Assembly: GCA_964348675.1 (NCBI GenBank)
Contig: CAYGDF010000002.1
Span: 1 to 45,626, forward strand
From: an uncultured Candidatus Saccharibacteria bacterium
GTDB lineage: Bacteria > Patescibacteriota > Minisyncoccia > Phycocordibacterales > UBA5272
Length of the DNA stretch: 45,626 nucleotides
Direction: 5' to 3'
Part shown: in pieces, positions 8,822-38,619 of the stretch
Layout: every line of letters begins with the position of its first letter
Position numbering within the stretch: position 1 is the first letter of the stretch
Translations under genes and position numbers: made by a program
Notes under the pieces: model-generated
Database searches by the model: none
What the model was told of the DNA's origin: nothing
Seen by the model: only the letters and a program-made list of their open reading frames with translations

Positions 8822-11800
8822 TCAAATTACGATATTGACCAGTTTTCCAGGGATAAAAATCTCTTTCTTAGGAATCTCCGTTCCGACGTATTTCGCATAG
8901 CCATCAAGGCTTTTTATGGCTTCTAGCACCTCTTCCTTGGTCGCCTCAGCCTTAAGTGATACTTCCCCTCTTAACTTCCCATTTACCTGAAGGGCGTAGA
9001 TTAGAGTGTCATTTATGAGTTTAGTTTCATCATATTTGGGCCAATTTTCGGTATGAATCGAGGTTTCCTCCCCAATATGCTTCCAGAGTTCCTCAGCGAT
9101 AAATGGAGCAAATGGCGAAAGCACTTTTATAAACATTTTGAAGTCATTTTTTGGTACGATTTCTTCTTTTTCATACTCATTTAGACAAATCATTAAAGAT
9201 GAAATGGCGGTATTGAATGCTGTTGTCTCAATATCATCTCCAACTTTTTTAATTGTCTTATGAGTGATAGAAAGTGTCTCGTCTTTATCTCCAACTTTTT
9301 CTTTGAGAGCATAAACTCTATCGATGAAGCGACGGATTCCGATTACTGATTTATCATCCCACGCCACCGCTTGGTCAAAAGGACCAATAAACATTTCATA
9401 CATACGAAGAGTGTCTGCTCCGAACTTTTTAACAATCTCATCTGGATTAATCACGTTACCAATCGACTTACTCATCTTCACTCCTCCTTTTCCAAGAATC
9501 ATTCCTTGTGAAGTTCTCTTAAAGTATGGCTCACTGGTCGGCGTCATGCCGATATCAAATAAAAATTTATACCAAAAACGAGAATAAAGTAAGTGAAGTG
9601 TGGTGTGTTCCATACCGCCGTTATACCAAGTAACAGGAAGCCATTTACTAAGCATTTCTTTTTCACCAATCTCCTTATCATTCTTTGGGTCAATATATCT
9701 CATGAAATACCACGACGAACCCGCCCACTGTGGCATAGTGTCTGTCTCACGACGAAACTCTTCTCCGTTTGGGTCGGTGTGGAAATATCCATCCTCATCA
9801 ATCCTCCCTTTTATGTGCACCCACTCTGGTACCTGATAAAGTGGAGACTCGCCGTTATCTGTTGGTTCATATTTATCTACCTGAGGCAGTGTGATTGGAA
9901 GTTCACTTTCATGAACTGGATGAAGTTTTCCTTCCTTATCATACACAAGAGGAATCGGTTCTCCCCAATAACGCTGGCGCGCGAAAACCCAATCGCGAAG
10001 TTTTGATTTCTTTACAAATCTACCACCAACACTTTCTGTAATTTTCTTTCTAGCTTCTTCACTTTCTAACCCGTCAAAATCACCTGAATTAAATAGAGTT
10101 CCATCTTCCGTCCAAACTTCTACACCTTTTAGATACTGTTCAAATAAAAATCTATGATGCTCCCAAGTTACTAAACCTAGAACCTCTTCCTTTTTAACTT
10201 TTAGCAACTCATGCTTTCCCTCTTCTACTTCACAGGTAACTCTTTTGTCGCTGTTTACTATGACCCCATACGCTGGACCGACCGTTCTTTGATTTTTACT
10301 CTTGGTGTGACGATACCCAAAACAAATAATTGATGGGGCAATTTTTTTAGCGATAGTAATATCTGTGAATCCTGTCTCTTCTGTTATTTCACGAGTAAGT
10401 GTTTCTTTATCTGTTTCACCTTCATCAACCCCACCCCCAGCAAGATGAATATGGTTTCCTTCTTTTTCTTTAATTAAATAATAATTACCGTCCTTATCAT
10501 ATAAAATTGGGTCAACAATATTTCTATATAGCGTTTCAACTCCGTCACGCTCTTTGTCATCACCGTCCAAAACATACTTCTTTCCAATAACGTCTATTAT
10601 TTCTATTCCATACTTCTTAGCAAATTCTCCGTCTCGCTCATCGTGCGCTGGAACTGCCATAATTGCACCCGTTCCGTAAGTGGCTAATACGTAGTCCGCG
10701 ATAAATACTGGAACTTCTTTTTTGTTTCCAGGATTAATAGCCATAACACCTTCTAACTTCACTCCAGTTTTTTCTTTTCCTTCTGCAGAACGGTCAATGT
10801 CTATTTTTTGAACTGCTTCATTTAGATATTTTTGTACCTCTTCTCTATTTTTTATTTTTCCTTCTGCGAGTAACTGCTTAACAAGCGCGTGCTCTGGGGC
10901 AAGTACACAATATGTACAACCAAACAAAGTATCCGCTCTTGTTGTATAGACAGTAAATGACTCATCGCCACTTAACCACTTTCTAAATTCTCTGTCTAAG
11001 TCATTAATTAAACCCGCATAACGAAACTCATTTGCTTGATCACCTTTGTATTCTTTCGTTTCAACGTCTAGTAGAAGTGACTCCGTTGGATATCCTTCCC
11101 AAAACTTTTCCGATTGAACTCCCTGAAGAACATATTTTCTTTGTAGTGAAACAAATCCTTTTGTACCTGTAGCGTCAGTGAAAGAAACTGCGTACTCAAA
11201 ATGCGCAGGTGAGTCCCCAACTTCTTTAACCCAATTCTTCAAAAATTCAATCACCTCTTCATCAGTTGCACGTTCAGAATCAGGATTCGCCTCTTTACGA
11301 AGATGAATCATGTAACCTTTATCCTTCGGCCATTTTTCAAGCCACAAGATATGGTCAGTAGAAATTGTGGGGATACCAGTAGCCTTGAAATAGAACTCTG
11401 ATTTTAATTTCGCATTTTCTTCAAAGTCCTGTCCTTCCACAAGTGAACTGTCGTCCACCTCAACGTCATTTAAACTTAGAAACTCAACATCTAAATCTTT
11501 CGGGAAGCACGCCGTCAACATTTGAAACTTAGCATTGTTCCTTGTTCCAATTAATATTTTCTTCTTTGAAACGAAACTTTCCGTTTTAATTTTAAAATCT
11601 ATCTCGCTTCCTTCTGAAAGTCCTATCCAATTTCTTTGTTGAATTTTTATTCTTTCCAAAAATTCCGTGTCGTCTAAATCTTTGGCTAACCTCTCAGCGT
11701 ATTTTGTAATGGCAAGCATCCATTGTTCTTTATTTCTTTTCTCAACCGGAGTTCCGCAACGTTCGCATTTTCCGTCCACCACTTCTTCGTTAGCCAGAAC

Positions 11801-12292
11801 ACACTTGTCTTTCGGACACCAGTTAACTGGCATCTCTTTTTTATAAGCCAAACCCTTTTCGTAAAGTTTAAGGAAAATCCACTGAGTCCATTTGTAATAC
11901 TCTGGATCTGTCGTATCTACTTCTCTATCCCAATCAAAAGAAAAACCGCAGGCTTTTAACTGTTCACGAAATGTACTTATATTTTCACGCGTTGTGATTG
12001 ATGGATGAATTCCAGTTTTAATGGCGTAATTTTCAGCAGGTAATCCAAAAGCGTCCCAGCCAATTGGAAACATGGTTTCAAATCCTTCCATGCGACGCTT
12101 TCTAACAATCACATCCATTCCCGTATAACTTCTAACATGCCCAACGTGAAGCCCGGCACCCGAAGGGTACGGAAATTCTACAAGACCGTAAAATGTTGGT
12201 TTAGAACTGTGAGTATCTGTTCTGTAGGTATTTTCTTTTTCCCATTTTTCTTTCCAATATTTTTCAACAGCAAGGTGATCGTAAGGATTCAT
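8822..12292 (-). CDS. leuS: Leucyl-tRNA synthetase with two large domain insertions (Ham1/ITPase-like and Nudix).
   Basis: 'PYPSGAGLHVGH' (HIGH), 'VKMSKS', editing-domain 'TTRADTLFG' and 'RDWVFARQRYWGEPIP'. At 1156 aa it is longer than the roughly 800-860 aa typical of bacteria. Confidence 0.95.
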   Translation of the reverse strand: MNPYDHLAVEKYWKEKWEKENTYRTDTHSSKPTFYGLVEFPYPSGAGLHVGHVRSYTGMDVIVRKRRMEGFETMFPIGWDAFGLPAENYAIKTGIHPSITTRENISTFREQLKACGFSFDWDREVDTTDPEYYKWTQWIFLKLYEKGLAYKKEMPVNWCPKDKCVLANEEVVDGKCERCGTPVEKRNKEQWMLAITKYAERLAKDLDDTEFLERIKIQQRNWIGLSEGSEIDFKIKTESFVSKKKILIGTRNNAKFQMLTACFPKDLDVEFLSLNDVEVDDSSLVEGQDFEENAKLKSEFYFKATGIPTISTDHILWLEKWPKDKGYMIHLRKEANPDSERATDEEVIEFLKNWVKEVGDSPAHFEYAVSFTDATGTKGFVSLQRKYVLQGVQSEKFWEGYPTESLLLDVETKEYKGDQANEFRYAGLINDLDREFRKWLSGDESFTVYTTRADTLFGCTYCVLAPEHALVKQLLAEGKIKNREEVQKYLNEAVQKIDIDRSAEGKEKTGVKLEGVMAINPGNKKEVPVFIADYVLATYGTGAIMAVPAHDERDGEFAKKYGIEIIDVIGKKYVLDGDDKERDGVETLYRNIVDPILYDKDGNYYLIKEKEGNHIHLAGGGVDEGETDKETLTREITEETGFTDITIAKKIAPSIICFGYRHTKSKNQRTVGPAYGVIVNSDKRVTCEVEEGKHELLKVKKEEVLGLVTWEHHRFLFEQYLKGVEVWTEDGTLFNSGDFDGLESEEARKKITESVGGRFVKKSKLRDWVFARQRYWGEPIPLVYDKEGKLHPVHESELPITLPQVDKYEPTDNGESPLYQVPEWVHIKGRIDEDGYFHTDPNGEEFRRETDTMPQWAGSSWYFMRYIDPKNDKEIGEKEMLSKWLPVTWYNGGMEHTTLHLLYSRFWYKFLFDIGMTPTSEPYFKRTSQGMILGKGGVKMSKSIGNVINPDEIVKKFGADTLRMYEMFIGPFDQAVAWDDKSVIGIRRFIDRVYALKEKVGDKDETLSITHKTIKKVGDDIETTAFNTAISSLMICLNEYEKEEIVPKNDFKMFIKVLSPFAPFIAEELWKHIGEETSIHTENWPKYDETKLINDTLIYALQVNGKLRGEVSLKAEATKEEVLEAIKSLDGYAKYVGTEIPKKEIFIPGKLVNIVI

Positions 12293-28635: not shown

Positions 28636-28670
28636 AAAACACGAACTTGTCACAAGTTTGTGTTTTTTAG

Positions 28671-28840
28671 TTCATGTGCCCAGGGCGGGACTCGGTCACA
28701 AAACTACCTCGTCGCAAGCTCCTCGAAGTAGTTTCGCGACCCCTATTCTCGTCCCCGCAAATGACGAAGGTCATTTGCTCTCAATTGACACAGTGAATAC
28801 AAAAGAGCCAACAAAATCAGTTGGCTCTTTTGTATTCATG
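28671..28840 (-). other. Structured element A, downstream of tRNA-Leu(TAA). It ends in a 24-nt exact copy of the tRNA 3' end.
   Basis: 28671-28694 is identical to 28835-28858 (ttcatgtgcccagggcgggactcg). It has a 17-18 bp hairpin at 28795-28837 and shares conserved blocks with element B (ggtcacaaa; ttcgcgacccctattc at 28733-28748). Confidence 0.7.
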
Positions 28841-28923
28841 TGCCCAGGGCGGGACTCGAACCCGCACGCTGTAACCAGCTGAGGATTTTAAGTCCTCTAT
28901 GTCTACCATTCCATCACCCGGGC
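28841..28923 (-). tRNA. tRNA-Leu (TAA).
   Basis: Reverse complement gcccgggtgatggaatggtagac..ggacttaaaatcc..long variable arm..gcgggttcgagtcccgc cctgggc a. Confidence 0.9.
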
Positions 28924-28954: not shown

Positions 28955-29581
28955 CTAATTTTTCCTCCTCCCTACAACCAAATAAAGGATAGTCGCGAAT
29001 AATCCACCGGACGTATCCATGAGTATGTCTTTTTGTGCATCCCAAATATCACCCTGTGACCCAAGCACCGCAAGACCCGCCTCTGGGTCTCCACTTATTG
29101 CATAGCGCCATTCAAATAACTCATAAAAGGCAGCTATGGCTGGTATTATCATAAACGCAGAAAAATATGCATACCATTTCTTATTCACGACTTTATATTT
29201 TAAGAGCGCCTCTATAAGAGGGTATGCATATAATCCGACGGTGGCATGCGCTACACGGTCGTACATATTTCTTTCGAAGCCGAAAAAGTTGTTAAACCAA
29301 TCAAACGGCACCAACGCAAATGTGTAATGTCCTCCCCATGTGTGCATGAATATAAGGATACTCATCAAGAGGTAGGAAATATTAGAAAACCTCACCTTCT
29401 TGTAATACAAGATTATAAGTATCAAAACTATTGGGATGATGGTAAGGTTTTCTATACGCCACGCATCTCTGTCATAAGGCGATATTGCCAGTAAAGAAAA
29501 TTCCACTATATAAACTAAAAGTAGTGCGTGAGGAAAATATTTTTGTATTACTTGCATATATTTAGTATAGCAAGTAAACAT
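28955..29581 (-). CDS. DUF2238 (YjdF-like) inner membrane protein.
   Basis: Multi-TM protein with 'HTWGGHYTFALVPFDWF...FERNMYDRVAH'. The real start may be the internal ATG at 29557. Confidence 0.7.
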   Translation of the reverse strand: MFTCYTKYMQVIQKYFPHALLLVYIVEFSLLAISPYDRDAWRIENLTIIPIVLILIILYYKKVRFSNISYLLMSILIFMHTWGGHYTFALVPFDWFNNFFGFERNMYDRVAHATVGLYAYPLIEALLKYKVVNKKWYAYFSAFMIIPAIAAFYELFEWRYAISGDPEAGLAVLGSQGDIWDAQKDILMDTSGGLFATILYLVVGRRKN

Positions 29582-29588
29582 TTATTCG

Positions 29589-29727
29589 TGAGACGCAGGC
29601 GGGAGTCGGTCACAAAGTCTAGTTTCGCGAGTACGCGAAACAGAAGACTTCGCGACCCCTATTCGACACCCGACAGAAATGAAGCAGTTCATTTCTTCCT
29701 GCGTCTTAAAAAACGCTTCGCTTATTT
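29589..29727 (-). other. Structured element B, downstream of tRNA-Cys. It ends in a 20-nt exact copy of the tRNA 3' end.
   Basis: 29589-29608 is identical to 29728-29747 (tgagacgcaggcgggagtcg). It shares ggtcacaaa and ttcgcgacccctattc (29649-29664) with element A and has covarying stems. Confidence 0.7.
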
Positions 29728-29729
29728 TG

Positions 29730-29803
29730 AGACGCAGGCGGGAGTCGAACCCGCGAATGGTGGTTTTGCAAACCACAGCGTTAGGCCACTTCGCCACTGC
29801 GTC
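29730..29803 (-). tRNA. tRNA-Cys (GCA).
   Basis: Reverse complement gacgcag tg gcgaagtggc..ggtttgcaaaacc..gcgggttcgactcccgc ctgcgtc t. U73 is the discriminator expected for Cys. Confidence 0.9.
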
Positions 29804-31483: not shown

Positions 31484-31530
31484 TATATATGGAACAATCC
31501 CCACAACCCTCTTTCACAAAGGAAGAAACG

Positions 31531-31989
31531 ATGTTTACCAAAATTGACCGCAAGTCCCCCGAAATCCTGTCGGCTTTGGCCACGGCCCAAGTCTTCAAGA
31601 AGCAGGGCCAGGTGCAAGGCCGTCCGGCAGTCGTCGGCGAGAAAATCGCCACGGTCCTCGCCAGCGGCGCAACCGAAACCACCAACACGGCCAAGGAAGG
31701 CGACTGGGTGATGACCAACCCCTCTGGGGAACAGTACATCATCGCTGAAGCCAAGTTCCTCGGCCGGTACGAAGCCACGGAAACCCCGGGCGTCTACCAG
31801 GCCAAGGGGTACTGCCGCGCGATCCCGAACCCGTTCGGCAAGCCGGTGGAGATCCTCGCCTCGTGGGGTGAACCCCAGACCGGCGACGAGAACTGCCTGT
31901 TCGCGGATGTGTGCGACGCCGACGGCAACAATATGGGCGGGGAACCGTACATCATCGAAGCCAAAGCGTTCGCCGAAACCTACAAGTAA
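31531..31989 (+). CDS. Hypothetical protein on GC-rich cassette 4, nested inside the mobile island.
   Basis: RBS aaggaag upstream of the ATG, strong GC3 bias in this frame, and a terminator at 32010-32037 (ccaccga-tgctttg-tcggtgg-tttt). Confidence 0.7.
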   Translation: MFTKIDRKSPEILSALATAQVFKKQGQVQGRPAVVGEKIATVLASGATETTNTAKEGDWVMTNPSGEQYIIAEAKFLGRYEATETPGVYQAKGYCRAIPNPFGKPVEILASWGEPQTGDENCLFADVCDADGNNMGGEPYIIEAKAFAETYK

Positions 31990-32270
31990 GCGACGCACCA
32001 CCACCGAGAAAGCCACCGATGCTTTGTCGGTGGTTTTCATTTCAAGATAACTATATTAAGTATGTTAAAATATATGAACAATTAAATATTGGGACCTAAC
32101 CCCTTCGTAAGAAGGATATGGTCTAAAATCCGTCCAAAGTAAAGATCTCCTAGTCAGAGGCTACTTTGGACGGTTATGCTCGGAAACGGGTATAGGCACT
32201 CCCTACGGGGTTTGCCGGCGCTGGCTAGGAGTTTTTTGCTACCTGGCTATTATTAAATAAAACCGTCCAA

Positions 32271-32702: not shown

Positions 32703-32711
32703 TGGTATAAT
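32703..32711 (+). promoter_or_regulatory. Extended -10 element (TGgTATAAT) upstream of the TIR-like/caspase-like gene pair.
   Basis: tggtataat lies immediately after the stop of the preceding gene. Confidence 0.45.
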
Positions 32712-32746: not shown

Positions 32747-33157
32747 ATGAATGAACCAAGAACGTTCATCAGTTTTGATTTTGATCATAACGAGAACGAA
32801 AAGATATTGTTTGCTGGGCAAGCTAAACACTCTAAAACACCTTTTAATATTAGTGACTGGTCCTCAAAGTCTCACCTGCCTCAATCTCAATGGGAAGCAC
32901 TTATTGAGGATAAAATTAGTAAGTGCCATCTTCTGATTGTGCTTGTTGGAAAGTCTATGGGATCTGCTGGTGGTGTTGCTAAAGAGATTGCATTTGCACG
33001 TAAGCACAATGTGCCGTTTTTTGGGGTGTATGTTGATGGTGCAAGCAGTTCTTACACCCTTCCTACGGGGTTAGCAAGTAACAGAGTTATTTCTTGGGGG
33101 TGGGATGATATTGCTTCTGCAATAAAGCAAATGATGGGAGAAGGTAAAAATAAATAA
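32747..33157 (+). CDS. TIR-like domain protein (DUF1863 / ThsB-like).
   Basis: 'TFISFDFDHNENEKILF', 'CHLLIVLVGKS' and 'GVAKEIAFARKHNVPFFGVYV' (candidate catalytic Glu80). It is a 136-aa single-domain protein. Confidence 0.65.
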   Translation: MNEPRTFISFDFDHNENEKILFAGQAKHSKTPFNISDWSSKSHLPQSQWEALIEDKISKCHLLIVLVGKSMGSAGGVAKEIAFARKHNVPFFGVYVDGASSSYTLPTGLASNRVISWGWDDIASAIKQMMGEGKNK

Positions 33158-33159
33158 AT

Positions 33160-34101
33160 ATGAAGAAAGCTCTAGCGATAGGTATTGATAACTACCCCAC
33201 TTCACCCTTAACGGGGTGCGCTAATGACGCTTCTTCATTTGCCGCAATTATAGAAAGTAACGGAGATGGATCTCCAAACTTTGATATTGTGGTACAGAAT
33301 AATGTTGCCACTAAAGCGGAACTAAAGAAAGCCATTGTAGAGCTCTTCAGTGGAGATAACGATACCGCTATCTTTTATTTTTCAGGACACGGCACTATGA
33401 ATGGCTTAGGTGGATATATCGTTACGCCAGACGCCCAACAATATGATGAAGGGGTTTCAATGGATGAAATTCTAGTTATTGCAAATAAGTCTAAAACAAA
33501 AAACAAGATCATAATTTTAGATTGTTGTTATTCAGGCGCTATGGGTTCACCTGAATTCTTAGGAGGATCTACTTCACAAATAAATGAAGGTCTTGTTATT
33601 CTTACTGCTTCCAAGAAAGACGAACTTGCCACTATGTCTAACGGGCGAAGCCTATTCACAGATCTTCTTCTAGATGGTCTACAGGGTGGCGCCGCTGATC
33701 TTATGGGGAGCGTAACACCTGGTAGTTTATACGCATACATTGATCAAGCGCTTGGTGCGTGGGAGCAAAGACCTGTTTTCAAAACTAACGTTACAAATTT
33801 TACTGCATTAAGAGTAGTTTCGGCAAAAGTGCCGATAGCAAATTTAAGGAAACTAACTACCTACTTTCCTAATCCTACAGATGTATATCAACTTGATCCC
33901 AGTTATGAGTTTACAAATACGGGTGTTGCTATTGATGCAAACGTGGCTATTTTCAAAGATCTTCAAAAGTTTCAGAGTGTAAATCTTGTTGTGCCAGTTG
34001 ATGCAGAATTTATGTATTTCGCTGCCCAGAATTCCAAATCTTGTAAGCTAACAGCTTTAGGGGCGCATTACTGGAGGTTAGTTAAGAATAAGCGCATTTA
34101 G
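33160..34101 (+). CDS. Caspase-like (peptidase C14 / metacaspase-fold) protease with an uncharacterised C-terminal domain.
   Basis: 'AIFYFSGHG' (His77) and 'IIILDCCYSGAMG' (Cys122/123) form the catalytic dyad. The ATG is 2 nt after the TIR-like stop. Confidence 0.8.
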   Translation: MKKALAIGIDNYPTSPLTGCANDASSFAAIIESNGDGSPNFDIVVQNNVATKAELKKAIVELFSGDNDTAIFYFSGHGTMNGLGGYIVTPDAQQYDEGVSMDEILVIANKSKTKNKIIILDCCYSGAMGSPEFLGGSTSQINEGLVILTASKKDELATMSNGRSLFTDLLLDGLQGGAADLMGSVTPGSLYAYIDQALGAWEQRPVFKTNVTNFTALRVVSAKVPIANLRKLTTYFPNPTDVYQLDPSYEFTNTGVAIDANVAIFKDLQKFQSVNLVVPVDAEFMYFAAQNSKSCKLTALGAHYWRLVKNKRI

Positions 34102-34107
34102 TATGTT

Positions 34108-35745
34108 ATGGCCTCTCCTACGTCACCAGAGGAACTCCTAGAGCTCCTAAAATCGGCCCAGAATGAAAAAGATGCTTATACCCCTGAAAAGTATAAGTAT
34201 GTAATTTATGTTCGTAAATCAACAGATGAAACCGGAAAGCAAATCCGGTCTATTGATGACCAGATAGCTGAGTGTAAGGATTTTGCAGAAAGGAATGACT
34301 TAAAGTTTATAGACATAATTGCTGAAGCAGAAAGCGCAAAGGAGCCAGGAATACGTCCTAAGTTTGCAAAAATGCTTCAAGAAATAAATACAGGTAAATA
34401 CCAAGGTATTATAGCTTGGCACCCGGATAGACTTGCTCGCAATATGAAAGAAGCTGGGGAAGTAATAGACCTTGTAGATAAAGATATAATTAAGGATCTA
34501 AAGTTTGTTAGTTTCACTTTTAATAATGATCCAAGTGGAAAACTTTTGCTTGGTATCACTTTTGCTCTATCAAAAGAATATTCTGACAAGTTAAGCATAA
34601 ATGTTAAAAGAGGTAATCGGCAAAGTATCGGTGAAGGCAAGTATGTAAACAAATCTAAACACGGATATATAAAGGATGTAAATGGTTACCTAAGACCTGA
34701 TGAAAATAATTTTGTATTACTGAAAACTGCTTTTCAAATGAGGTTAAAAGGCTCAACATTAGAGCAACTATCTGATTTTCTTATCTCTAACAGCTATTTT
34801 CATCGGAATACTGTGGACGCAAGTAAGTATTACAAGATGAACAAAGCAAAAATGCAGGTAATTCTTAAAGATCCTGTATATACAGGAGTTTTACAATATG
34901 GAGAAAATGTAGTGAACCTTATGGACCATTATGATTTTATTCCGATGGTTACCGTTAATGAGTTTATGCAGATAAATAACCTTTCGGCCAATAGCCAGTT
35001 AATTAAGTTGGCAAAGAGTTATAAGAAAGGTGAAGATGTTAAGGCTAATCTCTTACGGGACGCGGTAATTTGTGGGGAATGCAACGAACCAATGACAGCC
35101 GGTATTACGAATAAAAAGAACAAGAATACTGGCAAGATCACCAGATACTTCTATTACAGATGTGATACCGAAGATTGTATTAGGGAAGGTAAATCAGTGA
35201 GAGCAAAGGTTATAGTTAGTTATGTCTTAAATCTACTAAAGAAAAAACCTTTTTCTTCTGTGGAAAGCTATGACCACTACAAGGAGGAAATCAAGAAAGT
35301 AAACAAGGAACGTATTGTAACAGCTAAGCATAAGCTTCTTTCTCTTCAAACAGAAAGAGGAAAGGCTAATGAGAGAATTGAGAAAATTAAGGATGTTTTT
35401 CTAGATAGAGAAATAGGAGATGAGATGAAAAGGCATTACTCGGGTGATATAGAAAAGATAGAAAAGAGGTTAGTTGAAATTGAGGAAGAAGAAAAGAAAA
35501 CACGAAAAATCTATGAGAATGACAAGGAAAGTATCTTAACTCAAGAAAAGTTCCTTGAACTTATGGATAATACCCATACAATACTAGCTTCTATCAAGAA
35601 TATGGCTGAATTAGACTTTTACTTGAGAAAGTTCTTCTTGAACTTTACTATAAAAGACGAAATAGTATATAAATCAACGTTTAATAAACCTTTTGACCGC
35701 CTTGCGGACCAAAAAGTATTGAATGGTGCCCGGGAAAGGACTTGA
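34108..35745 (+). CDS. Large serine recombinase (resolvase domain, recombinase domain, zinc ribbon and coiled coil).
   Basis: 'YVIYVRKSTDETGKQ..SIDDQ' catalytic Ser region, 'AWHPDRLARN', and 'CGECNEPM...YYRCDTEDC'. Its 3' end overlaps tRNA-Leu(TAG). Confidence 0.85.
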   Translation: MASPTSPEELLELLKSAQNEKDAYTPEKYKYVIYVRKSTDETGKQIRSIDDQIAECKDFAERNDLKFIDIIAEAESAKEPGIRPKFAKMLQEINTGKYQGIIAWHPDRLARNMKEAGEVIDLVDKDIIKDLKFVSFTFNNDPSGKLLLGITFALSKEYSDKLSINVKRGNRQSIGEGKYVNKSKHGYIKDVNGYLRPDENNFVLLKTAFQMRLKGSTLEQLSDFLISNSYFHRNTVDASKYYKMNKAKMQVILKDPVYTGVLQYGENVVNLMDHYDFIPMVTVNEFMQINNLSANSQLIKLAKSYKKGEDVKANLLRDAVICGECNEPMTAGITNKKNKNTGKITRYFYYRCDTEDCIREGKSVRAKVIVSYVLNLLKKKPFSSVESYDHYKEEIKKVNKERIVTAKHKLLSLQTERGKANERIEKIKDVFLDREIGDEMKRHYSGDIEKIEKRLVEIEEEEKKTRKIYENDKESILTQEKFLELMDNTHTILASIKNMAELDFYLRKFFLNFTIKDEIVYKSTFNKPFDRLADQKVLNGARERT

Positions 35746-35808
35746 ACCTTCATGAGTTGCCTCGCTTGCTCCTAAGGCAAGTGCGTCTACCAATTTCGCC
35801 ACCCGGGC
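35724..35808 (-). tRNA. tRNA-Leu (TAG), with CCA encoded.
   Basis: Reverse complement gcccgggtggcgaaattggtagacgc a cttgc cttagga gcaag ..variable arm.. gaaggttcaagtccttt cccgggc a cca. Confidence 0.9.
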
Positions 35809-35906: not shown

Positions 35907-37091
35907 CTAGAAATCGAACCTAAACGAACCGCGTCCGCCGTTGTGGAACGATTCCCAAATTCGCTCCGCGTCATCCCTGGTGGCTCCTGGCTCAAACTGA
36001 CGCAAGATGAGGAGAAGTTGGCGCATTTCACCTTCTTTCATGGACTGGCTCATGCCACGCAGGTCACGGCTAGCCCACTCCTGAAAGAGTCGTTGCATGG
36101 AGTCGTCCTTGAAGCCCATCCACACAAAGCCGACATTCGTGAACTTCACCCCAAAGAAGTCAGGATTCATGGATCGCAGAATCTTCGCGCCCACGTGGTC
36201 GTCCCCCTCCACTTGCCACCAAGTGAGCCGAGAGAGGAGAGTGTTCGCAGACTCATTGAACGTCTGCATCATGACTTCCTTCAAGGACTTTCTCGGGTCT
36301 TCTGCAAGGTCGTCGATCAGGTCATCAAACTTCGCCGGGTCGACGATTTTCGCCAAACCGCTTGCTTCGAACACTACGAACTTGTGGTCCATGGTTCTAG
36401 CAACGAACATTCCTGAGAATGCGATTGGCGCTAAGATGAACGCACGTGTCGAACCGAAGAAGAGTGAAAATCGGAAGAGCGCATAGAATGTCACCTGAAA
36501 CAGAAGCGGTGCCATCCCTGGTATGGCATTTATCCCCTCCTTCAGACTTTGACCCGTGCGCTTACCGCCCACGAAAGTCACGACCTCGGCGAATTTAGCC
36601 AGCACATTGCGATGGTTACCGACATACTCACTGATAAACATCACAGCGAAAACCATTCCGGCAATTTGTGGTGACGTGTTGGTCATCTTTTGCGTCCCGA
36701 AGAACTCAAAAGTAACTGGCCCAACTTTGTACACGATTGCTGAGAGGAGGCCGGCCCAAAGAAGTGCGGGTCCGATGATGAGGAGTTGTCCCACACGCGG
36801 TGAAAAGCGGAATCCATTTCGCGAGGCAACCACAATACCGCACGAGGAGATAAGGGCTCCCGCGACCGCTGTCACCGCTAGGCTGGTAAGTGGCCAGTCA
36901 AAACCGTGCGGAATCAGAGTCTCAACATCTGTCCAGAAGTGGACAAGTGCGAATGTGGCCAAGCCGGCGGGTAAACCCACGATGGCGAAAGCCACGAACT
37001 CCCTCTTGAAAAGCAGGTACAGCGCACGACTCCACATCAGCACCACCGCAATAATTGCGAGGAAGTACAGAGGAGTAATAATCTGGTTCAT
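35907..37091 (-). CDS. Hypothetical polytopic membrane protein with a C-terminal soluble domain, on GC-rich cassette 5.
   Basis: 395 aa from ATG 37091. The N-terminal half has several TM segments. High GC3. I recognise no family. Confidence 0.65.
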   Translation of the reverse strand: MNQIITPLYFLAIIAVVLMWSRALYLLFKREFVAFAIVGLPAGLATFALVHFWTDVETLIPHGFDWPLTSLAVTAVAGALISSCGIVVASRNGFRFSPRVGQLLIIGPALLWAGLLSAIVYKVGPVTFEFFGTQKMTNTSPQIAGMVFAVMFISEYVGNHRNVLAKFAEVVTFVGGKRTGQSLKEGINAIPGMAPLLFQVTFYALFRFSLFFGSTRAFILAPIAFSGMFVARTMDHKFVVFEASGLAKIVDPAKFDDLIDDLAEDPRKSLKEVMMQTFNESANTLLSRLTWWQVEGDDHVGAKILRSMNPDFFGVKFTNVGFVWMGFKDDSMQRLFQEWASRDLRGMSQSMKEGEMRQLLLILRQFEPGATRDDAERIWESFHNGGRGSFRFDF

Positions 37092-37250
37092 GAGGAACCC
37101 CCGTTTTGAAGTTAATGATCTAATATCTTGCTTTTGCAAGCTTGCGCGTATTCTGACACAAAAAATTATAAAAGCAAAAATAGGTTGTAATTGAAACTGT
37201 TTTATAGTAGATTTTAAATGATTGAACAAACTCAAGAAAGGTGGACAACC

Positions 37251-37574
37251 ATGGCGACAACTCAAATGGATGTGAGAGTAGAACCGCGGTGGGGATTCTG
37301 GAATATCATCTCCAGCGCTATGGGGATACTGCTTGTGGTAGGGGTTCTGCTCTATGCATTTTTCAGGGCATTCCTCTGGGTGTGGCCCACACTCACATGG
37401 CTCTTGCCGGTGAGCCTCTACGTTGCATTCACCACGTGGATGCTGTACAAGTCAACCCAAATACCTGACGAAGTCGCGAGGAGCCACCGCCAGTACCAAA
37501 CGGTGATAGTGGTCCTGCGAACATTCATAATCCTGATCATTTTCTTCGCGAACACGCGATCGGTCGGGCCATGA
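37251..37574 (+). CDS. Hypothetical small 3-TM membrane protein on cassette 5.
   Basis: RBS aaaggtgga upstream of the ATG, and a hairpin terminator at 37580-37632. Confidence 0.6.
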   Translation: MATTQMDVRVEPRWGFWNIISSAMGILLVVGVLLYAFFRAFLWVWPTLTWLLPVSLYVAFTTWMLYKSTQIPDEVARSHRQYQTVIVVLRTFIILIIFFANTRSVGP

Positions 37575-37687: not shown

Positions 37688-37800
37688 TTTAAATAGGAGT
37701 ACGTTTAATCGATTACGTGTTCCTAAGGTTGGAGGCGGACAGCCGTCTCCAGTTTTTAAAATCAAACACCGGTCCAACGGGCCGGAGGAGAAAGAGCATA

Positions 37801-38067
37801 ATGGTCGATCCGGCCACCAAGGCCGCCATACGCCACGAGCGTGCGAAGATTGTTGCGAAAGCGGCAATAGCGTCAGTGATCGGTGCCTGCATTTTGGGAA
37901 CCGTGCTGATTTACTCGATCCACGAGGAGGGAACTCCCGCGGGTCAGGCCAACTTGAAGGAGCGCGAAGAAACACGTCGCTTCAACAAGCAAAAAGAGGT
38001 CGAGCTTGAGCAAATCAAGCTCGAACGCGCTAAACTCGAAGCTACACAAGCGGCTAAGGAGAACTGA
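37801..38067 (+). CDS. Hypothetical single-TM protein with a charged coiled-coil tail, on cassette 5.
   Basis: RBS ggaggag upstream of the ATG, TM segment 'AAIASVIGACILGTVLIY', then a K/E-rich helix. Confidence 0.6.
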   Translation: MVDPATKAAIRHERAKIVAKAAIASVIGACILGTVLIYSIHEEGTPAGQANLKEREETRRFNKQKEVELEQIKLERAKLEATQAAKEN

Positions 38068-38394
38068 ATGGCTGATACAGCCCATGGCGAAGGCGAAAAG
38101 AAGCCTTCACACTTCACCCCAATTATCCTGGCGGCGGCAGTACTCGCGCTCATCGCGTTTGTCCTGCCCATGGCGGGCACGGGCATCGGGGATTTCGTGC
38201 GCAACATCGGCAACGGTGTGGCCGAGGGTGCGGGAAACATCAACTCGCAACGCAACTCCCTCATCGCCATCGGCGTGGGTGCGGGCTTCATGATTGCTGC
38301 ACTCTTCGGTCTGATAGCCTTGGGCTTGCACTGGATGGCAGCTGGAACCAGACCGCCTGCACCACCTGCACCCCCGGCCGGCGGACACCACTAA
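38068..38394 (+). CDS. Hypothetical 2-TM Gly-rich membrane protein with a Pro-rich tail, on cassette 5.
   Basis: The ATG directly follows the stop of the preceding gene (tgaATG), so the two are translationally coupled. Confidence 0.6.
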   Translation: MADTAHGEGEKKPSHFTPIILAAAVLALIAFVLPMAGTGIGDFVRNIGNGVAEGAGNINSQRNSLIAIGVGAGFMIAALFGLIALGLHWMAAGTRPPAPPAPPAGGHH

Positions 38395-38619
38395 CACGCG
38401 AGCAAGCGTACAAAAGAGGGATGATAACCTCTCCAGAAAATTATCCGGGAGAAATTCCGAGCGACGGGCCAACTACCCTTCCCTGAAAAACGTGCGCCAC
38501 CCTTCTTTCCAGCTGGATGGCATATGTCAATCGCGGAAGAAACGGAGTTGGCCCGTTTTTTATTTTATAAAAAAAGAAATACACAGAAATGCTTTCACTT
38601 ATCACGCTATACTTTTTAT

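Follow-up and report, generated by a model that had tools for sequence, protein, structure and literature searches.

What kind of system is encoded by two adjacent genes at positions 32747 to 34101 in a 45,626-nucleotide (nt) stretch of DNA from an uncultured Candidatus Saccharibacteria bacterium (contig CAYGDF010000002.1; the whole stretch is called the window)? The first gene encodes a short Toll/interleukin-1 receptor (TIR)-like protein, and the second encodes a caspase-like protease. An earlier note, made from the letters of the sequence, had read the pair as a Thoeris-type module in which a signal from the TIR protein switches on the protease and had mentioned that such a variant was proposed. 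The variant is indeed published, under the name of type IV Thoeris, and full-length homology with its validated components identifies the gene pair as a clear case of it. The pair very likely (probability of about 0.9) also works by the type IV mechanism, the signaling steps of which would follow by analogy with the characterized systems. The system is already known, and the locus adds another member to it.

Gene pair and published type IV Thoeris systems

In type IV Thoeris, a short TIR protein makes N7-cyclic ADP-ribose (N7-cADPR) on infection, which acts on a caspase-like, arginine-specific protease (Rousset et al., bioRxiv 10.1101/2024.10.24.620036; Science 387:510, 2025). The protease cleaves many proteins after arginine, EF-Tu included, and aborts the infection (bioRxiv 10.1101/2024.10.24.620036). 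The characterized systems are those of Pseudomonas sp. 1-7 (PsTIR and PsCaspase) and Escherichia coli 328 (EcTIR and EcCaspase), and the substitutions PsTIR E79Q and PsCaspase C129A each abolish defense (bioRxiv 10.1101/2024.10.24.620036). Type IV systems are present in hundreds of bacterial and archaeal genomes, and two Parcubacteria are included in Table S1 of the same study (bioRxiv 10.1101/2024.10.24.620036). In a later preprint, type IV is among eleven verified types of Thoeris, and its effector is named ThsD or ThsE.

The TIR gene of the window (32747 to 33157, plus strand) encodes a single-domain protein of 136 amino acids (aa). Its TAA stop codon (33155 to 33157) is separated by a gap of 2 nt from the ATG (33160) of the effector gene (33160 to 34101, plus strand), which encodes 313 aa. 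The motifs TFISFDFD, LLIVLVG, and AKEIAFARKHNVPFFGVYV, the last with Glu80, were read in the TIR open reading frame (ORF), and YFSGHG with His77 and ILDCCYSG with Cys122/Cys123 were read in the effector ORF, in agreement with the coordinates and all of the motifs quoted in the earlier note. The identical locus was independently assembled in two other datasets, an ENA assembly and a Logan assembly. Curated Pfam cutoffs were passed, and the effector has over 7,400 matches among database proteins at an E value of ≤0.001 (the best with 62% to 70% identity over 100% of the length), which indicates that both ORFs are genes and not chance ORFs. Relatives with 64% to 66% identity are labeled "caspase family protein" in metagenome-assembled genomes of Candidatus Pacebacteria and Patescibacteria.

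The published MacSyFinder rule for detecting type IV Thoeris combines a caspase profile with a ThsB (PF08937) or TIR_2 (PF13676) hidden Markov model within one gene (bioRxiv 10.1101/2024.10.24.620036), and the window pair agrees with this rule in substance. The TIR protein is detected by ThsB PF08937 above the cutoff, the two genes are adjacent on the same strand, and the effector is homologous over its full length to EcCaspase, with a caspase-like domain and a family-specific C-terminal domain. In addition, the predicted catalytic residues, Glu80 of the TIR protein and His77/Cys123 of the protease, align with PsTIR E79 and with EcCaspase H82/C132, respectively. Type I Thoeris is defined by ThsA with SIR2 or transmembrane plus SLOG domains, whereas the window effector belongs to Peptidase_C14 and has no SIR2 or SLOG match.

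No architectural difference was found between the window pair and the characterized type IV systems. All have a short, single-domain, ThsB-type TIR gene (136 aa in the window, 123 aa for PsTIR, and 133 aa for EcTIR) upstream of an effector gene (approximately 313 to 321 aa) in a two-gene operon, and all of the effectors combine an N-terminal caspase-like domain with a C-terminal domain that has no assigned fold, with the catalytic Glu, His, and Cys in equivalent positions. Carriage on mobile elements is probably also shared, although the E. coli copy is part of a lambdoid prophage, where it is flanked by the lysis genes and the Q antiterminator, whereas the probable carrier in the window is a large-serine-recombinase element near tRNA-Leu in a host of the Patescibacteria/candidate phyla radiation (CPR) type. 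The window pair also resembles the other Thoeris types in its logic. In these, infection is sensed by a TIR of the ThsB family that produces a signal derived from NAD, and abortive infection is carried out by a second protein, an effector that has its own sensor domain. The window TIR matches the same Pfam and PADLOC ThsB models. However, the window effector is a protease, while theirs are SIR2 NADases or membrane pores; its presumed sensor domain is neither SLOG nor Macro, and the predicted signal is N7-cADPR instead of 3'cADPR or His-ADPR.

Co-occurrence of the TIR and effector genes

A scan with one genome per species yielded 80 loci encoding effector relatives with 48% to 68% identity, which span Bacteroidota, Firmicutes, Proteobacteria, Elusimicrobia, Cyanobacteria, Methanosarcinales, and others. 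The E. coli locus and L001, the closest relative on a long contig, brought the number of loci analyzed to 82. In 76 of them, the caspase gene has a short TIR-like ORF (median length, 136 aa) as its immediate same-strand neighbor, with gaps mostly of −4 to +14 nt. In two further loci the TIR gene lies 33 nt away on the opposite strand, and the sole locus lacking a TIR gene has just 429 nt of upstream sequence. A failure of the two genes to occur together in other genomes had been named in advance as evidence against the module, and the opposite was found.

In L001, the TIR and the effector are 73% and 70% identical, respectively, to those of the window, whereas the neighboring serine recombinases share only 26% identity, which indicates that the TIR and effector genes travel as a unit on different backbones. 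The effector matches phage protein family phrog_18397 over its full length (E value, 1e-88), and the TIR protein likewise matches phrog_6988 over its full length, indicating that phage or prophage carriage is common for both families. The locus fits a cassette that spreads horizontally among bacteria and archaea by way of varied mobile elements.

The gene order of type IV Thoeris was variable among the 76 loci, with the TIR gene upstream of the effector gene in 52 and downstream in 24. The downstream TIRs are more distant from the window TIR than the upstream ones (median identity, 20% versus 32%). Many loci carry a second TIR gene, with at least two short TIR genes per effector (e.g., L016, L025, L030, and L071).

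Caspase-like effector

The effector matched Pfam Peptidase_C14 (PF00656) with 66 bits (cutoff, 21.4) and the PADLOC "caspase" model. The complete EcCaspase, taken from an E. coli RefSeq genome in which the operon was located with an EcTIR fragment, was used as the effector reference and aligned with the window effector at 44% identity over residues 1 to 313 versus 1 to 321 (E value, 1e-93). The N-terminal protease domain (33160 to 33756; residues 1 to 199) shares 42% identity with that of EcCaspase, and the C-terminal domain (33757 to 34101; residues 200 to 313) shares 53%. His77 and Cys123 align with EcCaspase H82 and C132 and are invariant in 83 of 83 effectors, while Cys122 is present in 70%, which indicates that Cys123, not Cys122, is the catalytic nucleophile. 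The dyad proposed earlier, His77 with either of the two cysteines, therefore holds for His77 and Cys123 and fails for Cys122, and the loss of dyad residues in homologs that had been named as a counterargument was not observed.

An AlphaFold2 model of the full effector was obtained with a predicted local distance difference test (pLDDT) score of 84.6 and a predicted template modeling score of 0.81. In Foldseek, the model matched MALT1 paracaspase, caspase-7, -9, and -11, and bacterial GSU0716 at a probability of 1.00, with E values of 1e-13 to 1e-9 for the top MALT1/caspase matches. The model has the caspase-hemoglobinase fold with a His-Cys dyad, as is characteristic of the Peptidase_C14 superfamily. 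Searches of the PDB with the single sequences of both proteins returned just marginal metacaspase matches and a spurious CTP synthase match. A family profile matched metacaspase and MALT1 chains over residues 2 to 165 only, and it follows that the PDB copy searched contains no type IV effector structure.

The window effector shares the protease-domain fold and the His-Cys dyad with metacaspases and MALT1 paracaspase, and the type IV effector family further resembles them in arginine specificity, as measured for PsCaspase (bioRxiv 10.1101/2024.10.24.620036). However, the identity is only approximately 15% to 18% in structural alignments, and the window effector carries the family-specific C-terminal domain in place of a p10 or Ig-like accessory domain. 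Furthermore, metacaspases and MALT1 use Ca2+, scaffolds, or proteolytic processing, whereas type IV effectors are activated by a small nucleotide (bioRxiv 10.1101/2024.10.24.620036). Among NCBIfam models, the best match of the effector was to the EACC1-associated caspases (NF047832), over protease-domain residues 3 to 198, but the partner in the window is a TIR protein and no EACC1 is encoded with it.

TIR protein

The TIR ORF matched Pfam ThsB_TIR (PF08937) with 29.9 bits (cutoff, 21.2; E value, 7.7e-7), TIR_2 (PF13676) more weakly with 17.9 bits, and three PADLOC ThsB models, while a STALD/SLOG Pfam match was insignificant. A non-TIR identity, such as nucleoside deoxyribosyltransferase, had been named as grounds for abandoning the module and was rejected by the profile searches, in which ThsB_TIR and the PADLOC ThsB models were the best matches and the NCBIfam matches were noise far below their cutoffs.

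The validated PsTIR, whose sequence was taken from Table S2 of Rousset et al. (bioRxiv 10.1101/2024.10.24.620036), aligned with the window TIR end to end with 25% identity (pairwise E value, 5e-11), and Glu80 fell exactly opposite the catalytic Glu79 of PsTIR. Every one of the 81 caspase-adjacent TIRs compared has this glutamate, which bears out the proposal of Glu80 as the candidate catalytic residue of a minimal 136-aa TIR. The alignment with EcTIR was partial, with 19% identity, and such a weaker match is as expected for fast-evolving sensor TIRs. In this divergence the window TIR differs from the characterized type IV proteins.

C-terminal domain of the effector

The C-terminal domain had been described as an orphan domain. 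Since it is 53% identical to that of EcCaspase and has long blocks in common with it (QRPVFKTNV, LDPS.E, and LTALG), it is instead the signature domain of the family. Its conservation equals that of the protease domain (mean top-residue frequency, 0.67 versus 0.66), and approximately 25 positions are near-invariant across phyla, the invariant residues including W201, Q203, R204, P205, F207, T209, E250, Q269, T298, and Y304. The domain is presumed to act as the N7-cADPR sensor and dimerization domain. No sequence relative of it was found in the PDB by the family profile search. Modeled alone, it had a pLDDT of 81.9, and a fold search against the PDB returned nothing at an E value of ≤0.001. A winged-helix fold, as in MarR/PadR regulators and ribosomal protein eS10, was matched too weakly to be assigned (template modeling score, approximately 0.45; E value, ≥0.05). 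The absence of a fold match agrees with the literature, in which the domain is called a "domain of unknown function" and its ligand-binding role is a hypothesis of Rousset et al. (bioRxiv 10.1101/2024.10.24.620036).

The divergence of the TIR protein and the conservation of the C-terminal domain bear in opposite directions on whether the signal is N7-cADPR. With the same wiring, a TIR this far from PsTIR and EcTIR might make another nucleotide, to which the C-terminal domain would be tuned; Thoeris TIRs of different system types make several different products, and the ligand-binding role of the domain is a presumed one. However, the C-terminal domain is the better conserved half of the effector relative to EcCaspase, and its near-invariant positions across phyla argue for one shared ligand. 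PsCaspase was activated with metabolites derived from EcTIR, which indicates that a signal is shared by divergent TIRs of the family (bioRxiv 10.1101/2024.10.24.620036). A variant signal is accordingly improbable, and N7-cADPR remains the predicted signal of the window system.

Proposed mechanism

The steps of the mechanism are drawn from homology with the Pseudomonas sp. 1-7 and E. coli 328 systems. The 136-aa ThsB-type TIR, predicted to be both phage sensor and N7-cADPR synthase, would detect phage infection and, with Glu80 as the catalytic residue, convert NAD+ into the cyclic signal N7-cADPR. The 313-aa effector would bind N7-cADPR in a dimer, most probably via the C-terminal domain, and the binding would switch on the N-terminal caspase-like protease with its His77/Cys123 dyad. 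The activated protease may then cleave many cellular proteins after arginine, including EF-Tu, and the proteolysis would stop growth or kill the cell before phage replication is completed, i.e., abortive infection. Among the explanations weighed, the type IV Thoeris mechanism is by far the best supported and is highly probable.

The direction of signaling is not fixed by sequence alone, and TIR domains act as NADase effectors in other defense systems, so the wiring might be reversed, with the caspase-like protein sensing and activating and the TIR protein depleting NAD+ as in CBASS, Pycsar, and prokaryotic Argonaute systems. This arrangement was tested and rejected for PsTIR (bioRxiv 10.1101/2024.10.24.620036), and the window proteins are homologous to its components over their full length, which leaves reversed wiring very improbable here.

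Several points weigh against the assignment to type IV Thoeris or its mechanism. The PADLOC 2023 library has no dedicated type IV model, and only its generic ThsB and "caspase" models were matched. The low identity of the window TIR to PsTIR and its low, partial identity to EcTIR are usual for Thoeris sensors and leave room for a different product. The NCBIfam model caspase_w_EACC1 (NF047832) scored 101.4 bits against a cutoff of 140, which shows only that the effector is outside the EACC1-associated subtype. The effector comparison covers EcCaspase, one of the two characterized effectors. Finally, homology to the characterized systems is the basis on which the chemistry of the signal, the specificity of the protease, and the binding of the ligand to the C-terminal domain are predicted.

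It is conceivable, though quite unlikely, that the divergent TIR makes another signal or answers a trigger specific to CPR phages and that the C-terminal domain represents a new class of nucleotide-sensor fold. If so, the locus would offer a minimal, compact example for studying how the C-terminal domain switches on the protease. As a type IV Thoeris system, the locus is mainly of value for annotation, since it can be labeled with confidence as thsB plus a caspase-like effector, and it has little significance beyond that. It adds one instance in a Patescibacteria/CPR genome, adjoining a large serine recombinase at a tRNA-Leu gene. The locus touches the question of how the C-terminal domain binds N7-cADPR and activates the protease, which concerns the family as a whole and not this locus in particular.

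Host and genomic context

The genes flanking the locus include housekeeping genes for leucyl-tRNA synthetase, ClpB, translation initiation factor 2 (IF-2), an RluA-type pseudouridine synthase, DprA, TopA, and RelA/SpoT. The IF-2 is short (approximately 504 aa), and its named relatives, with 81% to 84% identity, are in Candidatus Pacebacteria and Gracilibacteria. A host from the Patescibacteria/CPR is thereby supported, as is the CPR-type genome suggested in the earlier note.

An extended −10 promoter-like motif, TGGTATAAT, is located at 32703 to 32711 (plus strand), where it immediately follows the stop codon of the preceding gene and leaves 36 nt to the TIR start. The pair had been credited with its own extended −10 promoter; the motif is present, but it can be regarded only as a candidate operon promoter. 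In a pattern search, five extended −10 motifs were observed in the window versus 1.9 expected, and five were reached in 4 of 100 shuffles. No −35 hexamer for the TGGTATAAT motif was found by a consensus scan.

A large serine recombinase (integrase) gene (34108 to 35745, plus strand) starts 6 nt after the effector gene. It encodes 545 aa with the Pfam domains Resolvase, Recombinase, and Zn_ribbon_recom and matches the integrase family phrog_95 (E value, 6e-58). It is followed by tRNA-Leu(tag) on the minus strand (35724 to 35808; identified with ARAGORN and matching Rfam tRNA with 58 bits), a probable integration target. Since the pair lies beside a recombinase gene that overlaps tRNA-Leu, a small integrative element of the Patescibacteria (CPR) genome probably carries it as cargo, and the recombinase is probably the mobilizing enzyme of the element. 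A recombinase homolog occurs within 5 kb in only 4 of the 82 related loci, and the recombinase was therefore rejected as a part of the defense system.

The recombinase gene overlaps the 3' end of the opposite-strand tRNA-Leu(tag) by 22 nt (35724 to 35745) with its final seven codons and its stop codon. This arrangement would fit an insertion into the tRNA gene in which the element provides the tRNA 3' end.

No att-type direct repeats linking tRNA-Leu(tag) to the left boundary of the island were found. Since long repeats are not an expected trace of serine recombinases, their absence here is uninformative. No unoccupied site was found among the IF-2 relatives, of which one contig ends too early and another lacks synteny, and no relatives were recovered when metagenomes were scanned with the flanking pseudouridine synthase. 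The G+C content of the TIR gene, caspase gene, and candidate island is 0.40 versus 0.41 for the window, and there is no foreign compositional signal except in the PGDYG gene described below. The serine-recombinase island next to a tRNA that the earlier note had described is thus borne out in the adjacency of the recombinase and tRNA genes, but not in its boundaries or an empty site, and the rarity of the recombinase among the related loci also counts against it; the island reading is plausible.

The adjoining integrase gene on a probable mobile element also bears on whether the pair serves defense at all. Abortive-infection modules can serve as stabilizers and CPR physiology is unusual, so the pair might conceivably be an addiction or stabilization module of the element, a host cell-death module, or a pair no longer functional in its host. 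However, both ORFs are intact and of family-typical length with every invariant catalytic residue kept, recombinases are unrelated or absent in 78 of the 82 loci, and homologous systems protect experimentally against phage T6 (bioRxiv 10.1101/2024.10.24.620036). Such roles are hardly to be expected, and a type IV Thoeris defense system remains the preferred reading of the pair.

Other features of the window

A gene encoding a PGDYG-domain protein (PF14083, 47 bits) at 31489 to 31989 (plus strand) has a G+C content of 60% in a neighborhood of approximately 40% and is a sharp outlier. The same arrangement was found in two independent assemblies, and the region is therefore not a chimera. The gene has a near-consensus promoter (TTGACT, a 16-nt spacer, and TGcTATAAT), and only 6 nt separate the end of the −10 element from the ATG, a spacing that suggests a leaderless transcript.

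An RNA of the LOOT family (Rfam RF03000) is located at 32093 to 32212 (plus strand). It lies within the putative island, with the GC-rich PGDYG gene on one side and, on the other, the 142-aa gene preceding the TIR gene. The match is full length, with 73.8 bits (gathering score, 46.4; E value, 6.9e-13). The LOOT RNA was considered as a part of the Thoeris system and rejected, as it is absent from 10 other TIR-caspase loci. Since the contig is of the Patescibacteria type, the match may help in finding a host for this orphan RNA family.

Downstream of tRNA-Leu(taa) and tRNA-Cys are segments of approximately 140 to 165 nt (in 28655 to 28866 and 29570 to 29760), each of which opens with a copy of approximately 20 to 24 nt of the 3' end of its own tRNA. 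Common to both segments are, in order, GGTCACAAA, an identical block of 16 nt (TTCGCGACCCCTATTC), and a hairpin (AAATGA...TCATTT). They look like the same small element or its remnant at two tRNA 3' ends, with att-like duplications.

The leucyl-tRNA synthetase gene (8822 to 12292, minus strand) encodes an unusually long protein of 1156 aa. Two inserts, Ham1p_like (ITPase) at residues 246 to 374 and NUDIX at residues 592 to 649, were detected above the Pfam cutoffs and sit between the canonical catalytic, editing, and anticodon-binding domains. Just beyond tRNA-Leu(tag), the regions at 35907 to 37265 (minus strand) and 37750 to 38500 have a G+C content of 50% to 58% versus 41% for the window and form a second compositional anomaly flanking the tRNA. 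This part of the window encodes a 452-aa protein, with no Pfam or PHROG match, that is apparently a multipass membrane protein.

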